Shown here: piece by piece, positions 1 to 7,511 of the stretch
Layout of the letters: the number at the start of each line of letters is the position of its first letter
How positions within the stretch are numbered: position 1 is the stretch's first letter
IMG/VR virus record: IMGVR_UViG_2698536395_000003
DNA length: 7,511 nt
Direction: 5' to 3' (one strand)
DNA from: a virus
Lineage: Duplodnaviria; Heunggongvirae; Uroviricota; Caudoviricetes
Translations under genes and position numbers: made by a program
The notes under the pieces: model-generated
The model's input: only the letters and a program-made list of their open reading frames with translations
Told to the model about the DNA's origin: nothing
Database searches by the model: none

Positions 1-66
1 AGGGGATTTTCCCTCGTTTTGAGGGATCTCCCTCATTTTAGGGGAACCTCCCTCGTTTTGAGGGAT
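1..66. repeat. Origin-of-replication iterons (lambda ori-type): three complete direct repeats of about 17 bp (10-26, 29-45, 49-65) plus a partial copy at 1-9
   Basis: Direct repeats tccctcgttttgaggga / tccctcattttagggga / tccctcgttttgaggga at 19-20 bp spacing, each an internal inverted repeat, located inside the O coding sequence. This matches the known lambda O-binding iteron architecture. Confidence 0.8.
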
Positions 67-414
67 GCACCATTCTGAGATGTTTTTATTTGGTCCAAAC
101 ATGCCGCCTTGCTGCTTGATAATATTCATTCTGACGAGTTCTAACTTGGCTTCATTGCACCGTTTGACAGGTAACTTTGTAATCTCGCTAAGTTGAGAAT
201 CGGTGATTCTGTCCATTGGTTTATTCCACCCATAGGTTTTACGCAGAATGGCAAGCAGCACTTTAAACTGTCGCTTGGTCAGATCTGCGCCTGAATAAGC
301 CTCAATCAGCATATTTGATAGTCTGGCGTAACCATCATCGAGATCTGCCACATTACGCTCCTGTTCGGCAAAGTTACCTCTGCCGAAGTTGAGTATTTTT
401 GCTGTATTTGTCAT
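1..414 (-). CDS. O: Replication initiator protein O (lambda-type), N-terminal portion; the CDS continues beyond the window start
   Basis: Minus-strand translation from the ATG at 414 reads MTNTAKILNFGRGNFAGQERNVADLDDGYARLSNMLLEAYSGADLTKRQFKVLLAILRKTYGWNKPMDRITDSQLSEITKLPVKRCNEAKLELVRMNIIKQQGGMFGPNKNISEWCIPQNEG..., which I recognise as lambda O. The frame is open to position 1, so the six-frame track does not list it. The coding sequence contains the ori iterons, as in lambda. Confidence 0.85.
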   Translation of the reverse strand, partial: MTNTAKILNFGRGNFAEQERNVADLDDGYARLSNMLIEAYSGADLTKRQFKVLLAILRKTYGWNKPMDRITDSQLSEITKLPVKRCNEAKLELVRMNIIKQQGGMFGPNKNISEWCIPQNEGGSPKMREIPQNEGKSP

Positions 415-423
415 AATGACTCC

Positions 424-501
424 TGTGGATTGATCCAGTAATTCCCTCAGAATTGCATATCAATTTGCTTAGAGTCCCCGGCGGCCACCGGGGATTTTTT
501 C
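424..501 (+). ncRNA. oop: oop-like antisense RNA, antisense to the 3' end of the cII-family gene; candidate promoter -35 ttgagt (389-394) and -10 cataat (412-417); intrinsic terminator hairpin 476-493 followed by a T-tract
   Basis: Plus-strand hairpin ccccgg-cggcca-ccgggg followed by attttttc lies inside the minus-strand cII coding region. A sigma70-like promoter with 17-bp spacer sits upstream at the O start. The position and organisation match lambda OOP RNA. Exact ends are inferred. Confidence 0.5.
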
Positions 502-743
502 TTTGTGATTTCATCAAGCGCATACTTAAAAGCCCTGCTAATCGGACTGATGTCTGATGCCATTCCGAAAGCACACAAGACCGAAGCAATAAATCTCCAG
601 TCCGTTCTGCTTATCTTCGATTCATGACAGCCAATCATCTTTGCCAGACCGCGCTGGGTAAGCGTTGACAGGTTGATGAGTAAATCTGTTTCTGCGCGAT
701 CAATTTCTCGCTGTGTTAGCTTGCTGTAACTTGCTTGTGCCAT
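447..743 (-). CDS. cII: cII-family transcriptional activator (lambda cII / P22 C1 homologue), 98 aa
   Basis: ORF with C-terminal tail ...KKKSPVAAGDSKQIDMQF resembling the lambda CII C-terminus (...KKRPAATERSEQIQMEF). It sits between cro and O. The oop terminator overlaps its 3' end and a TTGC-N6-TTGC box overlaps its 5' end. Confidence 0.8.
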   Translation of the reverse strand: MAQASYSKLTQREIDRAETDLLINLSTLTQRGLAKMIGCHESKISRTDWRFIASVLCAFGMASDISPISRAFKYALDEITKKKSPVAAGDSKQIDMQF

Positions 744-760
744 TTGTTAATTTTCCTATA
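715..760 (+). promoter_or_regulatory. PRE-like cII-dependent promoter with the CII box TTGC-N6-TTGC at 721-734, directed toward cro (antisense) and c2
   Basis: ttgctgtaacttgc at 721-734 on the plus strand is exactly TTGC-N6-TTGC. It overlaps the start of the cII-family gene as in lambda PRE. The -10 element is not confidently placed. Confidence 0.5.
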
Positions 761-799
761 TTGATATATAGCGGCACACCCAGTGGATTTGCCGCTGAT

Positions 800-846
800 G
801 TTTGCTCACCCGGTTAGAGGTGAAAGGCCAGAACTGTTAAAGAGCA
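800..846 (-). promoter_or_regulatory. nutR: boxA (834-846, minus-strand sequence tgctctttaacag) and a boxB hairpin (about 803-823) with loop CUAACC
   Basis: Minus-strand boxA-like gctctttaaca lies about 10 nt upstream of a hairpin uucaccu-CUAACC-gggugag. The same boxA core and identical loop occur at nutL. Located between cro and cII, as for nutR. Confidence 0.55.
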
Positions 847-852
847 ATTTAC

Positions 853-1038
853 TTATGCCGCTTGGCGGTAAGCACTTTCTTGATACTTCAGGGCGCCAGC
901 TGTAACGATTTCCAATCGATAGGCGTCTTTCTCTGGGATAACTTCTTTCCACTGAGAGACTGCTGCATCGCTAATGCCTAGTGCTTTAGCAACAGCACGC
1001 TGGGTTCCGAAGTGGTCAATAACATCTTTTTTGTACAT
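853..1038 (-). CDS. cro: Cro repressor, P22-type, 61 aa
   Basis: MYKKDVIDHFGTQRAVAKALGISDAAVSQWKEVIPEKDAYRLEIVTAGALKYQESAYRQAA matches my recollection of phage P22 Cro almost exactly. A GGAG ribosome-binding site precedes the start on the minus strand. Confidence 0.93.
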   Translation of the reverse strand: MYKKDVIDHFGTQRAVAKALGISDAAVSQWKEVIPEKDAYRLEIVTAGALKYQESAYRQAA

Positions 1039-1118
1039 AGACTCGCTCCGAAATTAAAGAACACTTAAATTATCCACCAAAGGAATCTTAAGTCAAGTTT
1101 ATTTAAGATGTCTTAACT
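1039..1118. promoter_or_regulatory. OR operator region with divergent PR and PRM: three 18-bp sites fitting the P22 c2 operator pattern ANTNAAGNNNNCTTNANT at about 1053-1070, 1076-1093 and 1101-1118; PR on the minus strand with -35 ttgact (1091-1096) and -10 ataatt (1068-1073)
   Basis: attaaagaacacttaaat, accaaaggaatcttaagt and atttaagatgtcttaact each carry the AAG-N4-CTT core. A minus-strand ttgact-17bp-ataatt promoter overlaps the first two sites upstream of cro. The PRM position is inferred and appears to give a leaderless or near-leaderless c2 mRNA. Confidence 0.65.
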
Positions 1119-1769
1119 ATGAATACACAACTGATGGGTGAGCGTATTCGCGCTCGCAGAAAAGAACTCAAGATTAGGCAGGCTGCCCTTGGCAAGATGG
1201 TTGGCGTGTCTAATGTTGCTATTTCCCAATGGGAGCGATCTGAAACTGAGCCCAATGGCGAAAACCTATTGGCCTTAGCCAAGGCTTTGCAGTGCTCCCC
1301 TGATTACCTGTTGAAAGGAGAGGATAGTCTTTCAAACATTGCCTATCACAGCAGGCATGATCCAAGAGGTTCGTATCCTCTAATTAGTTGGGTAAGCGCA
1401 GGATGTTGGATGGAAGCTGTAGAGCCATATCATAGGCGTGCAATAGATAACTGGTACGACACAACGGTAGATTGTTCTGAAGACTCTTTTTGGCTCGACG
1501 TTAAAGGTGATTCAATGACTGCCCCGGCAGGACTGAGTATTCCTGAAGGGATGATTATTCTCGTCGACCCAGAAGTCGAACCACGTAATGGAAAGCTGGT
1601 AGTCGCCAAACTTGAAGGAGAAAACGAGGCGACATTCAAAAAGTTAGTTATTGATGCCGGTAGAAAATTCCTGAAACCACTCAATCCACAATACCCAATG
1701 ATTGAAATCAATGGGAACTGTAAAATCATTGGCGTTGTCGTTGATGCCAAGCTAGCAAACCTTCCTTAA
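1119..1769 (+). CDS. c2: c2 repressor (P22-type CI-family immunity repressor with HTH N-domain and LexA/S24-like C-terminal autocleavage domain), 216 aa
   Basis: MNTQLMGERIRARRKELKIRQAALGKMVGVSNVAISQWERSETEPNGENLLALAKALQCSPDYLLKG... is recognised as P22 C2. The C-terminal domain carries the GDSM serine motif and the conserved lysine region typical of self-cleaving repressors. Confidence 0.95.
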   Translation: MNTQLMGERIRARRKELKIRQAALGKMVGVSNVAISQWERSETEPNGENLLALAKALQCSPDYLLKGEDSLSNIAYHSRHDPRGSYPLISWVSAGCWMEAVEPYHRRAIDNWYDTTVDCSEDSFWLDVKGDSMTAPAGLSIPEGMIILVDPEVEPRNGKLVVAKLEGENEATFKKLVIDAGRKFLKPLNPQYPMIEINGNCKIIGVVVDAKLANLP

Positions 1770-1791
1770 GGGGCTTTCGCCCCTTTTTTAT
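1768..1791 (+). terminator. Rho-independent terminator downstream of c2
   Basis: ggggc-tttc-gcccc hairpin followed immediately by ttttttatt, starting at the c2 stop codon. Confidence 0.6.
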
Positions 1792-1833
1792 TTCCCGTTA
1801 AAAATCAAAGACAAACTAAATTCGCGCCCATAA

Positions 1834-1895
1834 AATTAAGTTTTCTTCAAAAATGCACTTGACCAAAAAATTAAGAGGTCTTAATTTTAAGCCGT
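1834..1895 (+). promoter_or_regulatory. OL/PL: operator sites at 1834-1851 (aattaagttttcttcaaa) and 1869-1886 (aattaagaggtcttaatt); PL -35 ttgacc (1859-1864) and -10 taattt (1882-1887)
   Basis: Both 18-bp sites match the ANTNAAGNNNNCTTNANT pattern found at OR. The second is a near-perfect palindrome overlapping the spacer and -10 of a ttgacc-17bp-taattt promoter pointing toward N. Confidence 0.65.
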
Positions 1896-1932
1896 CAGCA
1901 GGAGGCTGGAAGCCAAACGGAACAGATTGGCA

Positions 1933-1973
1933 GGCTCTTTAACATCGACGAACTCTCAACCTAACCGTTGAGA
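1933..1973 (+). promoter_or_regulatory. nutL: boxA ggctctttaaca (1933-1944) and boxB hairpin tctcaac-CTAACC-gttgaga (1954-1973)
   Basis: BoxA-like element 9 nt upstream of a 7-bp-stem hairpin with a 6-nt loop, in the PL leader upstream of N. Same boxA core and same loop as the nutR candidate. Confidence 0.65.
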
Positions 1974-2083
1974 CCAGAACTTGAGTGGTTTTGGGGATGG
2001 CGCGAATTGCAGCTGCAAGACAGCGATCGAGAAGATAAGCACCTCGACGCGTCATGCGCCAAAGCCACTTAAAGGAGACCATC

Positions 2084-2389
2084 ATGGTAACCATTGTCTG
2101 GAAAGAATCCAAAGGTACGGCAAAAAGCCGCTACAAAGCTCGCAGAGCAGAACTTATTGCCGAGCGACGCAGTAATGAAGCACTGGCGCGAAAAATTGCG
2201 CTAAAGCTCTCTGGTTGCGTCAGAGCAGACAAAGCAGCATCACTAGGAAGCCTTTGCTGCAAGAAGAAAGAAGAAGTTGTTCGAAAAAATAGAAGTATTT
2301 ATTACAAGGATTCAAACCCATTAGGAAACAAAATACATGCAGTCCAAAAAATAAAATTGTACAGTAAACTACCGTACGGTGCTTATTGA
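2084..2389 (+). CDS. N: N transcription antitermination protein, phage-21-type arginine-rich motif
   Basis: From the ATG at 2084 (preceded by aaggag at 2071-2076) the product begins MVTIVWKESKGTAKSRYKARRAELIAERR...; GTAKSRYKARRAELIAERR is the phage 21 N arginine-rich boxB-binding motif. The track ORF 2054-2389 is the same frame from an upstream ATG without a ribosome-binding site. Confidence 0.85.
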   Translation: MVTIVWKESKGTAKSRYKARRAELIAERRSNEALARKIALKLSGCVRADKAASLGSLCCKKKEEVVRKNRSIYYKDSNPLGNKIHAVQKIKLYSKLPYGAY

Positions 2390-2391
2390 GT

Positions 2392-2730
2392 ATGCTTATG
2401 GTGAAAAAGACTATTTATGTTAATCCTGACCGCGGACAAAACAGAAAAGTATCTGATAGAGGTCTTACATCTCGAGACAGGAGGAGAATAGCGAGATGGG
2501 AAAAGAGGATAGCATATGCATTAAAAAACGGTGTAACACCTGGATTTAATGCTATAGATGACGGTCCTGAATATAAGATTAATGAAGACCCAATGGACAA
2601 AGTTGACAAAGCATTAGCAACACCATTTCCTCGCGATGTCGAAAAAATTGAAGATGAAAAATATGAGGATGTAATGCACAGAGTTGTTAATCACGCTCAC
2701 CAACGAAATCCAAATAAAAAATGGTCATAG
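2392..2730 (+). CDS. Hypothetical protein (about 112 aa) immediately downstream of and overlapping the N stop; arginine-rich basic N-terminal half and acidic C-terminal half; function unknown
   Basis: Open frame from TTG 2386 / ATG 2392 / ATG 2398 to the stop at 2728-2730, whose start region overlaps the N stop codon (2387-2389). Followed directly by an intrinsic terminator. Product MLMVKKTIYVNPDRGQNRKVSDRGLTSRDRRRIARWEKRIAYALKNG...EKIEDEKYEDVMHRVVNHAHQRNPNKKWS is not recognisable to me. The start codon is uncertain. Confidence 0.55.
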   Translation: MLMVKKTIYVNPDRGQNRKVSDRGLTSRDRRRIARWEKRIAYALKNGVTPGFNAIDDGPEYKINEDPMDKVDKALATPFPRDVEKIEDEKYEDVMHRVVNHAHQRNPNKKWS

Positions 2731-2753
2731 CCCACTTCGGTGGGTTTTTTATT
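2731..2753 (+). terminator. Rho-independent terminator (tL1-like position)
   Basis: cccac-ttcg-gtggg hairpin followed by ttttttatt immediately after the stop codon at 2728-2730. Confidence 0.65.
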
Positions 2754-2863
2754 GGCTGAACTAACCTAATTTATTACAGCAAGCCACGCAGTGAAATGGG
2801 TGTGACTTGTGTTGGTCGCCAGAAAATGAAATTAGGCAGCAAACCACTTATTTGAGGTGAGAT

Positions 2864-3334
2864 ATGACAAAATCATGGAGCGTACCTTTTCCTGAATCAG
2901 AAACTGAACATGATGGAATGCCTGTTTTCTGGAGATTCCAGGCGACAGTTGAAGAAGATGGGATAAAAATATTCGCACTTCAATATATAGCTTTTCATCA
3001 GACAGAGCATTATGCATGGTTGGTTCCTGCGCATTGGATTGTTAATTTTAAACCAGCACCAAATCAGTGGTTACAGGAATGGAAACAAAGGAGAAATAGA
3101 TATGCAATTAAGAAAGTAGCAAAAAATGCAGAAAGATCTTTTGCATTCCCAACGAAGAAACTTGCTATTGAAAGTTTATTGCGCCGGAAGAAATACCATT
3201 TAATGAGAATAAAACAAGATTTGGCTGTTGTATCAACTCTTGTTGATGGGATGAAAAATATTGATACATCAACACCAGATATTGAATATAACTTTGGACA
3301 CAACCAAGAAACAGAAAATTGGGTATTTTATTAG
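2864..3334 (+). CDS. Hypothetical protein, 156 aa, in the AT-rich island; function unknown
   Basis: ORF with a good ribosome-binding site (gaggtga 6-8 nt upstream of ATG 2864) and a long open frame in AT-rich DNA. Product MTKSWSVPFPESETEHDGMPVFWRFQ...KQRRNRYAIKKVAKNAER...LLRRKKYHLMRIKQ... has an aromatic-rich N-terminal part and basic central patches. No homologue recognised. Confidence 0.6.
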   Translation: MTKSWSVPFPESETEHDGMPVFWRFQATVEEDGIKIFALQYIAFHQTEHYAWLVPAHWIVNFKPAPNQWLQEWKQRRNRYAIKKVAKNAERSFAFPTKKLAIESLLRRKKYHLMRIKQDLAVVSTLVDGMKNIDTSTPDIEYNFGHNQETENWVFY

Positions 3335-3438
3335 TACGAGTAAGCACTGTGTATTCATTCCAACGAGTGAATACACGGAGCAATGTCGCTCGTAACTAAA
3401 CAGGAGCCGACTTGTTCTGATTATTGGAAATCTTCTTT

Positions 3439-3465
3439 GCCCTCTAATGTGAGGGCGATTTTTTT
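3439..3465 (+). terminator. Rho-independent terminator upstream of ea10
   Basis: gccctc-taatgt-gagggc hairpin followed by gatttttttc. Confidence 0.6.
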
Positions 3466-3483: not shown

Positions 3484-3852
3484 ATGTCAAACATCAAAAA
3501 ATACATCATTGATTACGACTGGAAAACATCAATAGAAATTGAAATCGACCATGACTTAATGACAGAGGAAAAACTTCACCAGATTAATAATTTCTGGTCA
3601 GACTCTGAATACCGACTCAATAAACACGGCTCTGTATTAAATGCTGTATTAATCATGCTGGCGCAACATGCTCTGCTTATAGCAATTTCAAGCGACTTAA
3701 ATGCATATGGTGTTGTGTGTGAGTTCGACTGGAATGATGGAAATGGTCAGGAAGGATGGCCTCCAATGGATGGTAGCGAAGGAATAAGAATTACCGATAT
3801 CGATACATCAGGAATATTTGATCCAGATGATATGACTATCAAAGCCGCCTGA
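3484..3852 (+). CDS. ea10: Ea10-like early protein (lambda ea10 homologue), 122 aa
   Basis: 122-aa ORF with ribosome-binding site gagga upstream, ending 72 nt before cIII. The size and the spacing to cIII match my recollection of lambda ea10. Product MSNIKKYIIDYDWKTSIEIEIDHDLMTEEKLHQINNFWSDSEYRLNKHG.... The identification is from memory and should be confirmed by alignment. Confidence 0.7.
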   Translation: MSNIKKYIIDYDWKTSIEIEIDHDLMTEEKLHQINNFWSDSEYRLNKHGSVLNAVLIMLAQHALLIAISSDLNAYGVVCEFDWNDGNGQEGWPPMDGSEGIRITDIDTSGIFDPDDMTIKAA

Positions 3853-3924
3853 GCGCGGCGTTACCGCATACCAATTACGCTTCACTCGAGGCGTTTTTCG
3901 TTATGTATAAATAAGGAGCACACC

Positions 3925-4089
3925 ATGCAATATGCCATTGCAGGGTGGCCTGTTGCTGGCTGCCCTTCCGAATCTTTACTTGAACGAATTACCCGTAAAT
4001 TACGTGACGGATGGAAACGCCTTATCGACATACTTAATCAGCCAGGAGTCCCGAAAAATGGATCAAACAATTATGGCTATCCAGACTAA
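3925..4089 (+). CDS. cIII: CIII protein (protects CII from FtsH/HflB), 54 aa
   Basis: ATG at 3925 preceded by aaggag; translation [54 protein letters not shown] matches lambda CIII. It is absent from the ORF track because it is shorter than 60 aa. Confidence 0.9.
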   Translation: MQYAIAGWPVAGCPSESLLERITRKLRDGWKRLIDILNQPGVPKNGSNNYGYPD

Positions 4090-6996: not shown

Positions 6997-7301
6997 GCGA
7001 AATTAACTCTCAGGCACTGCGTGAAGCGGCAGAGCAGGCAATGCATGACGACTGGGGATTTGATGCGGACCTTTTCCATGAGCTGGTAACACCATCGATT
7101 GTGCTGGCACTGCTGGATGAACGGGAAAGAAACCAGCAATACATCAAACGCCGCGACCAGGAGAACGAGGAAATTGCGCTAACGGTAGGGAAGCTGCGTG
7201 TTGAGCTTGAGGAAGCAAAATCAAAACTCAACGAGCAGCGTGAGTATTACGAAGGTGTTATCTCGGATGGGAGTAAACGTATTGCTGAACTGGAGAAATG
7301 A
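6993..7301 (+). CDS. Hypothetical coiled-coil protein, probably the N-terminal part of an ea22-like gene truncated by the IS insertion; GTG start
   Basis: GTG 6993 overlaps the upstream stop (GTGA) with ribosome-binding site gagagg 6 nt upstream. The frame ends at a TGA (7299-7301) that coincides with the first bases of the IS-like left terminus. The heptad-rich C-terminal part (LTVGKLRVELEEAKSKLNEQREYYEG) suggests coiled coil. The ea22 assignment is positional inference only. Confidence 0.55.
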   Translation: MSEINSQALREAAEQAMHDDWGFDADLFHELVTPSIVLALLDERERNQQYIKRRDQENEEIALTVGKLRVELEEAKSKLNEQREYYEGVISDGSKRIAELEK

Positions 7302-7511
7302 GGTAGCCTGAGTTTAACGGACACTCATTCCTGAACTAGAAAGGCATCAGAAGGAGCTAATAATCAGCAGAAAAACCCAACGTTACTCTAAAGAGCTAAA
7401 AGCCGAAACTGTCAGAACGGTTCTTGAAAATAAACTTTCGATCAGTGAAGGCGCCTCCCGATTACCCCTTCTTGAAGGCACTTTAGGACAATGGGTTACC
7501 GCCGCCAGAAA
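7299..7511 (+). mobile_element. Left end of an IS3-family insertion sequence (IS600-like): terminal repeat starting TGAGGTAGCC... and the 5' part of transposase orfA; the element continues beyond the window end
   Basis: The sequence from 7299 begins with a TG...GGACAC-type IS3-family terminus. From 7363 the frame reads (I)SRKTQRYSKELKAETVRTVLENKLSISEGASRLPLLEGTLGQWVTAAR, which is the helix-turn-helix N-terminus typical of IS3-family OrfA and closely resembles what I recall of IS600 OrfA. Confidence 0.7.
7363..7511 (+). pseudogene. IS3-family transposase orfA, 5' partial; the expected start codon position reads ATC rather than ATG, so it is either a non-canonical start or an inactivated copy
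   Basis: Strong ribosome-binding site aaggag (7351-7356) 6 nt upstream of codon 7363-7365 (ATC). The frame has no ATG, GTG or TTG between the upstream stop and the conserved SRKTQRYSKE segment. The frame is open to the window end. Confidence 0.4.

Follow-up and report, generated by a model that had tools for sequence, protein, structure and literature searches.

By its sequence, the small protein encoded directly after the N antiterminator gene in an EHEC-type Escherichia coli prophage is a known and already characterised one: Nun. With a probability of about 0.9, the gene is the orthologue of HK022 nun in a lambdoid prophage, and its product would exclude lambda-type invaders as Nun does. 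The gene had been described as an uncharacterised 'island' gene, a view refuted by identity to HK022 Nun at 108 of 109 residues (PDB 6ALG chain N; E = 2.6e-71 in a search of solved structures). The window, that is, the whole 7,511-nt stretch of DNA that was analysed, represents a prophage of EHEC-type E. coli whose repressor is P22-like.

2398..2730, plus strand: nun coding sequence of 110 codons and a stop; once the initiator Met is removed, the mature protein has 109 residues (from 6ALG, PHROG 5632, the starts of homologues, and the HK022 coding sequence)

Identity of the protein

The sole change relative to 6ALG chain N, S11R, falls outside both the amino-terminal arginine-rich segment (ARM) and the carboxyl-terminal arrest tail. 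Identity between the ARM and PDB 1HJI chain B, from the structure of the arginine-rich Nun peptide with lambda boxB RNA, is complete (26 of 26 residues). Moreover, every residue that has been tested by mutagenesis is unchanged from HK022 Nun: H93, R94, N97, H98, H100, R102, K106, K107, and W108. The reading frame also covers PHROG 5632, "Nun-like transcription termination factor," from end to end (E = 4.8e-71).

Among phage records, 30 match the reading frame by tblastn. The HK022 GenBank nun gene is 97.4% identical, and those of mEp235 and mEpX1 are 98.2% identical. The mEp235 annotation places 'transcription termination factor Nun' directly after "antitermination protein N," and the mEpX1 records give Nun or Nun-like. 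On this evidence, the arrangement of N followed by nun was already deposited and annotated.

The original prediction had suggested a protein mimic or a small nucleic-acid-binding regulator, and had named the Nun and Ral families as ones that a homology search might reveal. It is Nun that the search reveals. The guess of nucleic-acid binding was right for the basic amino-terminal part, which is identical to the Nun ARM peptide solved with lambda boxB RNA (1HJI; PMC5386594). Mimicry or anti-restriction activity finds no such support: in the cryo-EM structure, it is the carboxyl-terminal tail that occupies the cleft of RNA polymerase (PMC5386594), and sequence identity to Nun rules out Ral-like, anti-restriction, and protein-mimic roles. 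As for Ral itself, the top PHROG match is Nun, the two weak secondary PHROG matches are to families of unknown function, and in phi367, a related phage, Ral has a gene of its own. No model of Pfam, NCBIfam, or PADLOC matches the reading frame, and an Rfam scan gives no match in or near nun.

Start codon and protein layout

The reading frame is real: the N stop codon (TGA, 2387-2389), the candidate starts, and the stop codon (TAG, 2728-2730) all lie where they had been placed, and the peptides quoted from the translation are correct. In-frame candidate starts are TTG 2386, ATG 2392, ATG 2398, and GTG 2401, the last of which was missing from the earlier list. Translation had been proposed to begin in or at the N stop codon. 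This holds for TTG 2386, the only candidate to overlap that codon, but homologues support ATG 2398. Indeed, the Met aligned with ATG 2398 is the first residue in every diverged homologue of 109-110 residues; the current HK022 annotation uses the same Met; and numbering from Val (codon 2401) reproduces both the PDB chain (V1) and the H93, H98, H100, and W108 of the literature. These three points make ATG 2398, 8 nt after the N stop codon, the most likely start.

The protein divides into parts of sharply different charge. Residues 1-44 have a net charge of +10 (pI 11.5) and residues 45-86 a net charge of -7 (pI 4.2), a segregation reached by 40 of 20,000 sequence shuffles. Residues 87-109 have a net charge of +3 (pI 10.0) and include three His residues. 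The bipolar pattern noted originally is thus correct as to the basic amino-terminal part and the acidic middle. However, the layout has three parts rather than two: the basic, His-rich tail, on which function critically depends, was left out of the quoted 'acidic half'.

2455..2532, plus strand: ARM, Nun residues 19-44 (DRGLTSRDRRRIARWEKRIAYALKNG), predicted to bind the lambda boxB hairpin as described for Nun (PMC5386594); residues 20-44 have a net charge of +7
2533..2658, plus strand: acidic linker, Nun residues 45-86
2659..2727, plus strand: carboxyl-terminal arrest tail, Nun residues 87-109 (KYEDVMHRVVNHAHQRNPNKKWS), identical to that of HK022 Nun and containing H93, H98, H100, R102, K106, K107, and the penultimate, aromatic residue W108

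The acidic linker of Nun is not visible by cryo-EM, in which residues 87-109 alone are seen (PMC5386594). Tail residues seen inside the RNA polymerase cleft were mutated in the same study, and their roles are also treated elsewhere (PMC4496710).

Expected action against invading phages

Nun excludes superinfecting lambda and lambda imm434 (PMC5386594, PMC4124055, PMC4496710). Through its ARM it binds boxB, a hairpin in nascent nut RNA, in competition with lambda N (PMC5386594, PMC4124055), and residues 87-109 thread into the RNA polymerase active-site cleft and block translocation (PMC5386594). Nun action is stimulated by the factors NusA, NusB, NusE, as well as NusG (PMC5386594, PMC4124055), and the Nun-arrested complex is released by Mfd (PMC4124055, PMC4496710). 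Mutants of HK022 that lack nun function show normal lytic growth and lysogenisation, and no role is known for Nun beyond exclusion (PMC4124055, PMC4496710).

The protein encoded here would be expected to work in the same way, because of its identity with the characterised HK022 Nun. A repressed prophage would make a low level of Nun. Upon entry of an invader with lambda-type nut sites, the arginine-rich helix would bind boxB in the nascent pL and pR transcripts, competing with the N protein of the invader. Together with NusA, NusB, NusE, and NusG, the tail (residues 87-109, including H98, K106, K107, and W108) would then enter the RNA polymerase cleft and block translocation. Finally, Mfd would remove the arrested complex, and the early genes of the invader would not be expressed. 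We infer an exclusion phenotype for the prophage from the identity of its protein to HK022 Nun.

Nun and the N proteins of the lambda family have much in common. Both are small and largely unstructured, binding boxB through an amino-terminal ARM and engaging RNA polymerase through a carboxyl-terminal part; both are dependent on Nus factors; and their genes take the same place in the genome. Nun has been termed an N homologue in the literature (PMC4124055). Nevertheless, the outcomes are opposite: antitermination by N, arrest by Nun. The conserved tail, VVNHAHQRNPNKKW, is specific to Nun, and comparison of Nun with the Pfam N models gives no significant match.

The resident N protein and nut sites

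The phage that carries nun has an antitermination system of its own, of a different type from that of lambda.

2084..2389, plus strand: N antiterminator gene, encoding a phage-21-type ARM (PHROG 271; protein alignment); the allele in physical linkage with nun is the one with the carboxyl-terminal tail KDSNPLGNKIHAVQKIKLYSKLPYGAY
1933..1973, plus strand: nutL, with boxA GGCTCTTTAACA at 1933-1944 and a non-lambda boxB hairpin, TCTCAAC-CTAACC-GTTGAGA, at 1954-1973 (sequence and fold)
806..846, minus strand: nutR, with boxA TGCTCTTTAACA at 846-835 and another non-lambda boxB hairpin, TCACCT-CTAACC-GGGTGA, at 823-806 (minus-strand fold)

The ARM of the resident N protein is identical at 22 of 22 residues to the N peptide of PDB 1NYB, which we take to be the phage 21 N peptide-boxB complex. 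The site that matches nutR is annotated as boxA in phage mEp235. A search of the 7,511-nt window for the lambda boxB pattern finds none, save for one match with three mismatches at 7465-7479, which is at chance level. Since both the N protein and the nut sites that it carries belong to the phage 21 type, and since lambda boxB is missing, the resident phage should be spared by Nun. The same logic applies to HK022, in which N gene and nut sites are missing altogether.

Might Nun instead regulate its own phage? By binding to the phage-21-type boxB of the resident, or by a route that does not involve nut, it could damp N-dependent antitermination, for example to tighten lysogeny or delay induction. 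Nun in excess does arrest transcription without nut, and its overproduction is toxic (PMC4124055, PMC4496710); moreover, tight linkage between N and nun recurs in distant phages. However, the published specificity of Nun is for lambda nut (PMC4124055), a type whose boxB the window lacks, and the Nun ARM differs from the ARM of the neighbouring N protein in both of the pairs inspected (this window and Hafnia phage Pocitis76), which fits an outward-facing weapon. Such self-regulation is therefore highly improbable, and exclusion of lambda-type invaders remains the preferred reading.

Boundaries of the nun module

Genes in the window are ordered cII, cro, repressor, N, nun, then cIII, kil, gam, bet, and exo. 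This sets nun in the early-left (PL) region, beside immunity, and bears out the original placement of the gene in the PL operon directly after N.

1119..1769, plus strand: P22-type repressor gene
2763..2855, plus strand: second, stranded N 3' end (...SEMGVTCVGRQKMKLGSKPLI*), downstream of the nun terminator and matching the N 3' end of nun-less phages

Prophages in complete E. coli genomes, including that of the O26 strain RM10386, are 99.8-100% identical to the window. Homology to HK022 around nun is confined to 2272-2747 (96.6% identity), which comprises the last third of N, nun, and the terminator. The GC content of this shared block is 36.6%, versus 48.4% for the 5' part of N. The block begins inside N, and the last ~38 N codons (...EEVVRKNRSIYYKDSNPLGNKIHAVQKIKLYSKLPYGAY) correspond to the sequence that survives upstream of nun in HK022. 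Beyond the nun terminator, the remnant at 2763-2855 matches the N ends of phages without nun, including Gally, HK542, and HK97. The junction is marked by a 10-bp direct repeat, ATTTATTACA, at 2297-2306 and again at 2769-2778, where N has its Ile-Tyr-Tyr codons. N is a chimeric gene: the final ~38 codons fall within the HK022-shared block, and the second, stranded N 3' end lies past the nun terminator. In the simplest reading, two diverged N alleles would have recombined to give this structure, with nun and its terminator having lain behind one of the two.

Comparison with HK022 itself shows both likeness and difference. The two proteins are identical in the ARM, in the His-rich segment, and in the KKW tail, and the two loci have in common the 126 bp upstream of nun as well as the position of the terminator. 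In HK022, nun follows putL and there is no N gene, whereas here it follows an intact phage-21-type N gene. The N-less arrangement of HK022 thus is not the only one, since several other phages also have nun directly after N: mEp235, mEpX1, Kapi1, PDP110P1, PA28, 06-3462, and a group of Stx1a-converting phages. Of these, mEp235 is 98.5% identical to the window over 407-2856 (from cII to the N remnant), P22-like repressor and N included. These phages differ from the window only in downstream cargo genes and a few point changes; PA28 differs in its terminator and N frame as well.

Other features of the window can be noted. Between nun and cIII lie two AT-rich ORFs (35-38% GC) at 2864-3334 and 3484-3852; one encodes a 156-residue protein of PHROG 1636, of unknown function, and the other a DUF2528 protein. 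They are followed by terminator-like hairpins at 3437-3458 and 3877-3894, respectively, and resemble additional cargo cassettes of unknown function. The Rfam cIII thermoregulator RNA, Lambda_thermo, is found at 3912-3970 (88.5 bits), overlapping the start of cIII (3925-4089). At the left end of the window (1-66), repeats of the form TCCCTC(G/A)TTTT(G/A)(A/G)GGGA lie inside a gene labelled 'replication protein' in RefSeq, and look like lambda-type origin iterons. At the right end (7299-7511) is an apparent IS600 element of the IS3 family; the match to RM10386 extends no further than 7298, and an IS600 transposase is listed there in related genomes.

Terminator and expression

Two elements flank the nun coding sequence within the block shared with HK022.

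2272..2397, plus strand: upstream part of the HK022-shared module, 126 bp, which also encodes the last ~38 codons of N
2729..2752, plus strand: intrinsic terminator closing the nun module, with a 7-pair stem (2729-2746), a UUCG loop, and a T-run

A terminator had been predicted directly after the reading frame, and it is real. Stem and T-run are both present, and the fold has an energy of -10.3 kcal/mol (z = -2.2). Furthermore, the stem carries a compensatory change relative to HK022 (CCCAC/GTGGG here, CCCGC/GCGGG in HK022), which speaks for its being maintained.

The main nun promoter of HK022 reportedly lies just 5' of the coding sequence, and transcripts are said to end just past nun. The promoters of HK022 nun should lie in the region equivalent to 2272-2397, to judge from the shared DNA. 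Two consensus scans of 2230-2400, one with looser criteria, reveal no convincing sigma-70 promoter, only weak 7-of-12 matches; promoter-like -10 matches are TAAAAT at 2352-2357 and TAAACT at 2365-2370, both weak. Here, the putative promoter region also is translated as the carboxyl terminus of N, a second use that could constrain or change the promoter. Because the module lies inside the 3' part of N and is closed by a terminator, transcription begun within it should stop immediately past nun.

Lysogens of HK022 make Nun constitutively (King et al. 2000, as cited in PMC5386594), and the repressed prophage is credited with a Nun concentration of about 100 nM (King et al. 2000, as quoted in a citing paper). 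Expression in the prophage state would be expected here as well, given 96.6% DNA identity with HK022.

One could argue from the weakness of the upstream promoter matches that nun is a silent or decaying passenger, a module that landed inside N with its promoter compromised and whose protein is not made in useful amounts. Phage PA28 provides a precedent of sorts: a 1-nt deletion there causes the N frame to run into nun, and the stem of the nun terminator is disrupted (CCCACTTCGATAGATTT; positions 2200-2870 of locus L003). The window tells otherwise. Its nun reading frame is intact, and near-identical copies are present in ~4% of complete E. coli genomes; all of the functional residues are kept; and the terminator is intact, with its compensatory change. 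A silent or decaying passenger is thus extremely unlikely.

The original prediction can be read as giving the protein a primary role in the first minutes of lytic growth, as an early regulator co-translated with N from PL that would act as a protein mimic or an anti-restriction factor at infection or induction. Position is in keeping with such a role: the gene is in the PL operon, and its likely start, 8 nt past the N stop codon (1-3 nt in distant relatives), would permit translational coupling on PL transcripts. Nevertheless, the protein is Nun and matches neither Ral nor any family of PADLOC or Pfam, and HK022 nun works without an N gene upstream. The known role of Nun is in the repressed prophage; HK022 nun mutants show normal growth and lysogenisation, and exclusion is the only function known for Nun (PMC4124055, PMC4496710). 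An early lytic regulator of this sort is very unlikely, and exclusion by a repressed prophage is much the better account.

The wider Nun family

A search of 5.8 billion proteins yields only 22 Nun clusters, and their alignment reveals a tail, EDVMHRVVNHAHQRxPxKKW, that is conserved in homologues down to 41% overall identity, together with an ARM that varies. The most distant members, of which Hafnia phage Pocitis76 has one, combine a lambda-N-like ARM (MDAQARRREKRK...) with a tail that retains VVNHAHQRN..KKW. One of these most distant members has Pfam N36 on record.

Gene arrangement varies as well. In Pocitis76 (positions 1740-2267 of locus L008), the nun-like gene is 3 nt after an N gene whose ARM differs from that of Nun, and among Pocitis76 and a metagenomic contig (L012) the distance past N is 1-3 nt. 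In Citrobacter braakii (430-1060 of locus L009), a putL-like element precedes nun, which is followed by an ORF that is a remnant of the N 3' end. Another metagenomic contig (2362-3140 of locus L010) contains an HK022-like putL element, then nun, then an overlapping gene for a second Nun paralogue (2824-3117). This paralogue has the tail VNHAHQRRPDKKWS, and its amino terminus resembles a phage-21-type N ARM. Further downstream of the two paralogues there is a lambda-like N gene.

Targeting heads therefore vary on a constant tail, and appear from these alignments to be exchangeable within the family. Such patterns speak for Nun being an exclusion device that faces outward and whose targeting heads can be exchanged. 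A more ambitious proposal, to which we attach rather low odds, is that a nun gene adjoining N is also expressed from PL, coupled to N, because it begins so close behind the end of N, at 8 nt here and at 1-3 nt in distant relatives. Nun would then have a lytic-phase role in poly-lysogenic EHEC strains, directed against co-induced or co-infecting phages with lambda-type nut sites. The family as a whole would be a modular kit, in which a constant arrest tail is combined with exchangeable ARMs for the nut types of rivals, tandem paralogues such as those of the metagenomic contig included.

Distribution and annotation

Megablast finds nun in 221 of 5,426 complete E. coli genomes; in 157 complete genomes the gene is intact and at least 99% identical. 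Many of the 221 carriers are EHEC strains of serogroups O26, O111, O145, and O157.

Work on Nun goes back to the 1980s and includes a solved structure of its complex with RNA polymerase, so the value of these results as discovery is small. Their practical value lies in an annotation gap. In almost every match listed, RefSeq labels the nun product "hypothetical protein" (for example, WP_000930321.1, at 2892-3230 of locus L005), and occasionally "transcriptional regulator." The label 'hypothetical protein' is explained by the failure of any Pfam, NCBIfam, or PADLOC model to match Nun; catalogues of prophage anti-phage functions that are based on these collections will miss it. In the RefSeq record of PA28, a 45-residue fragment alone is annotated 'Nun-like', although the full nun reading frame is intact.
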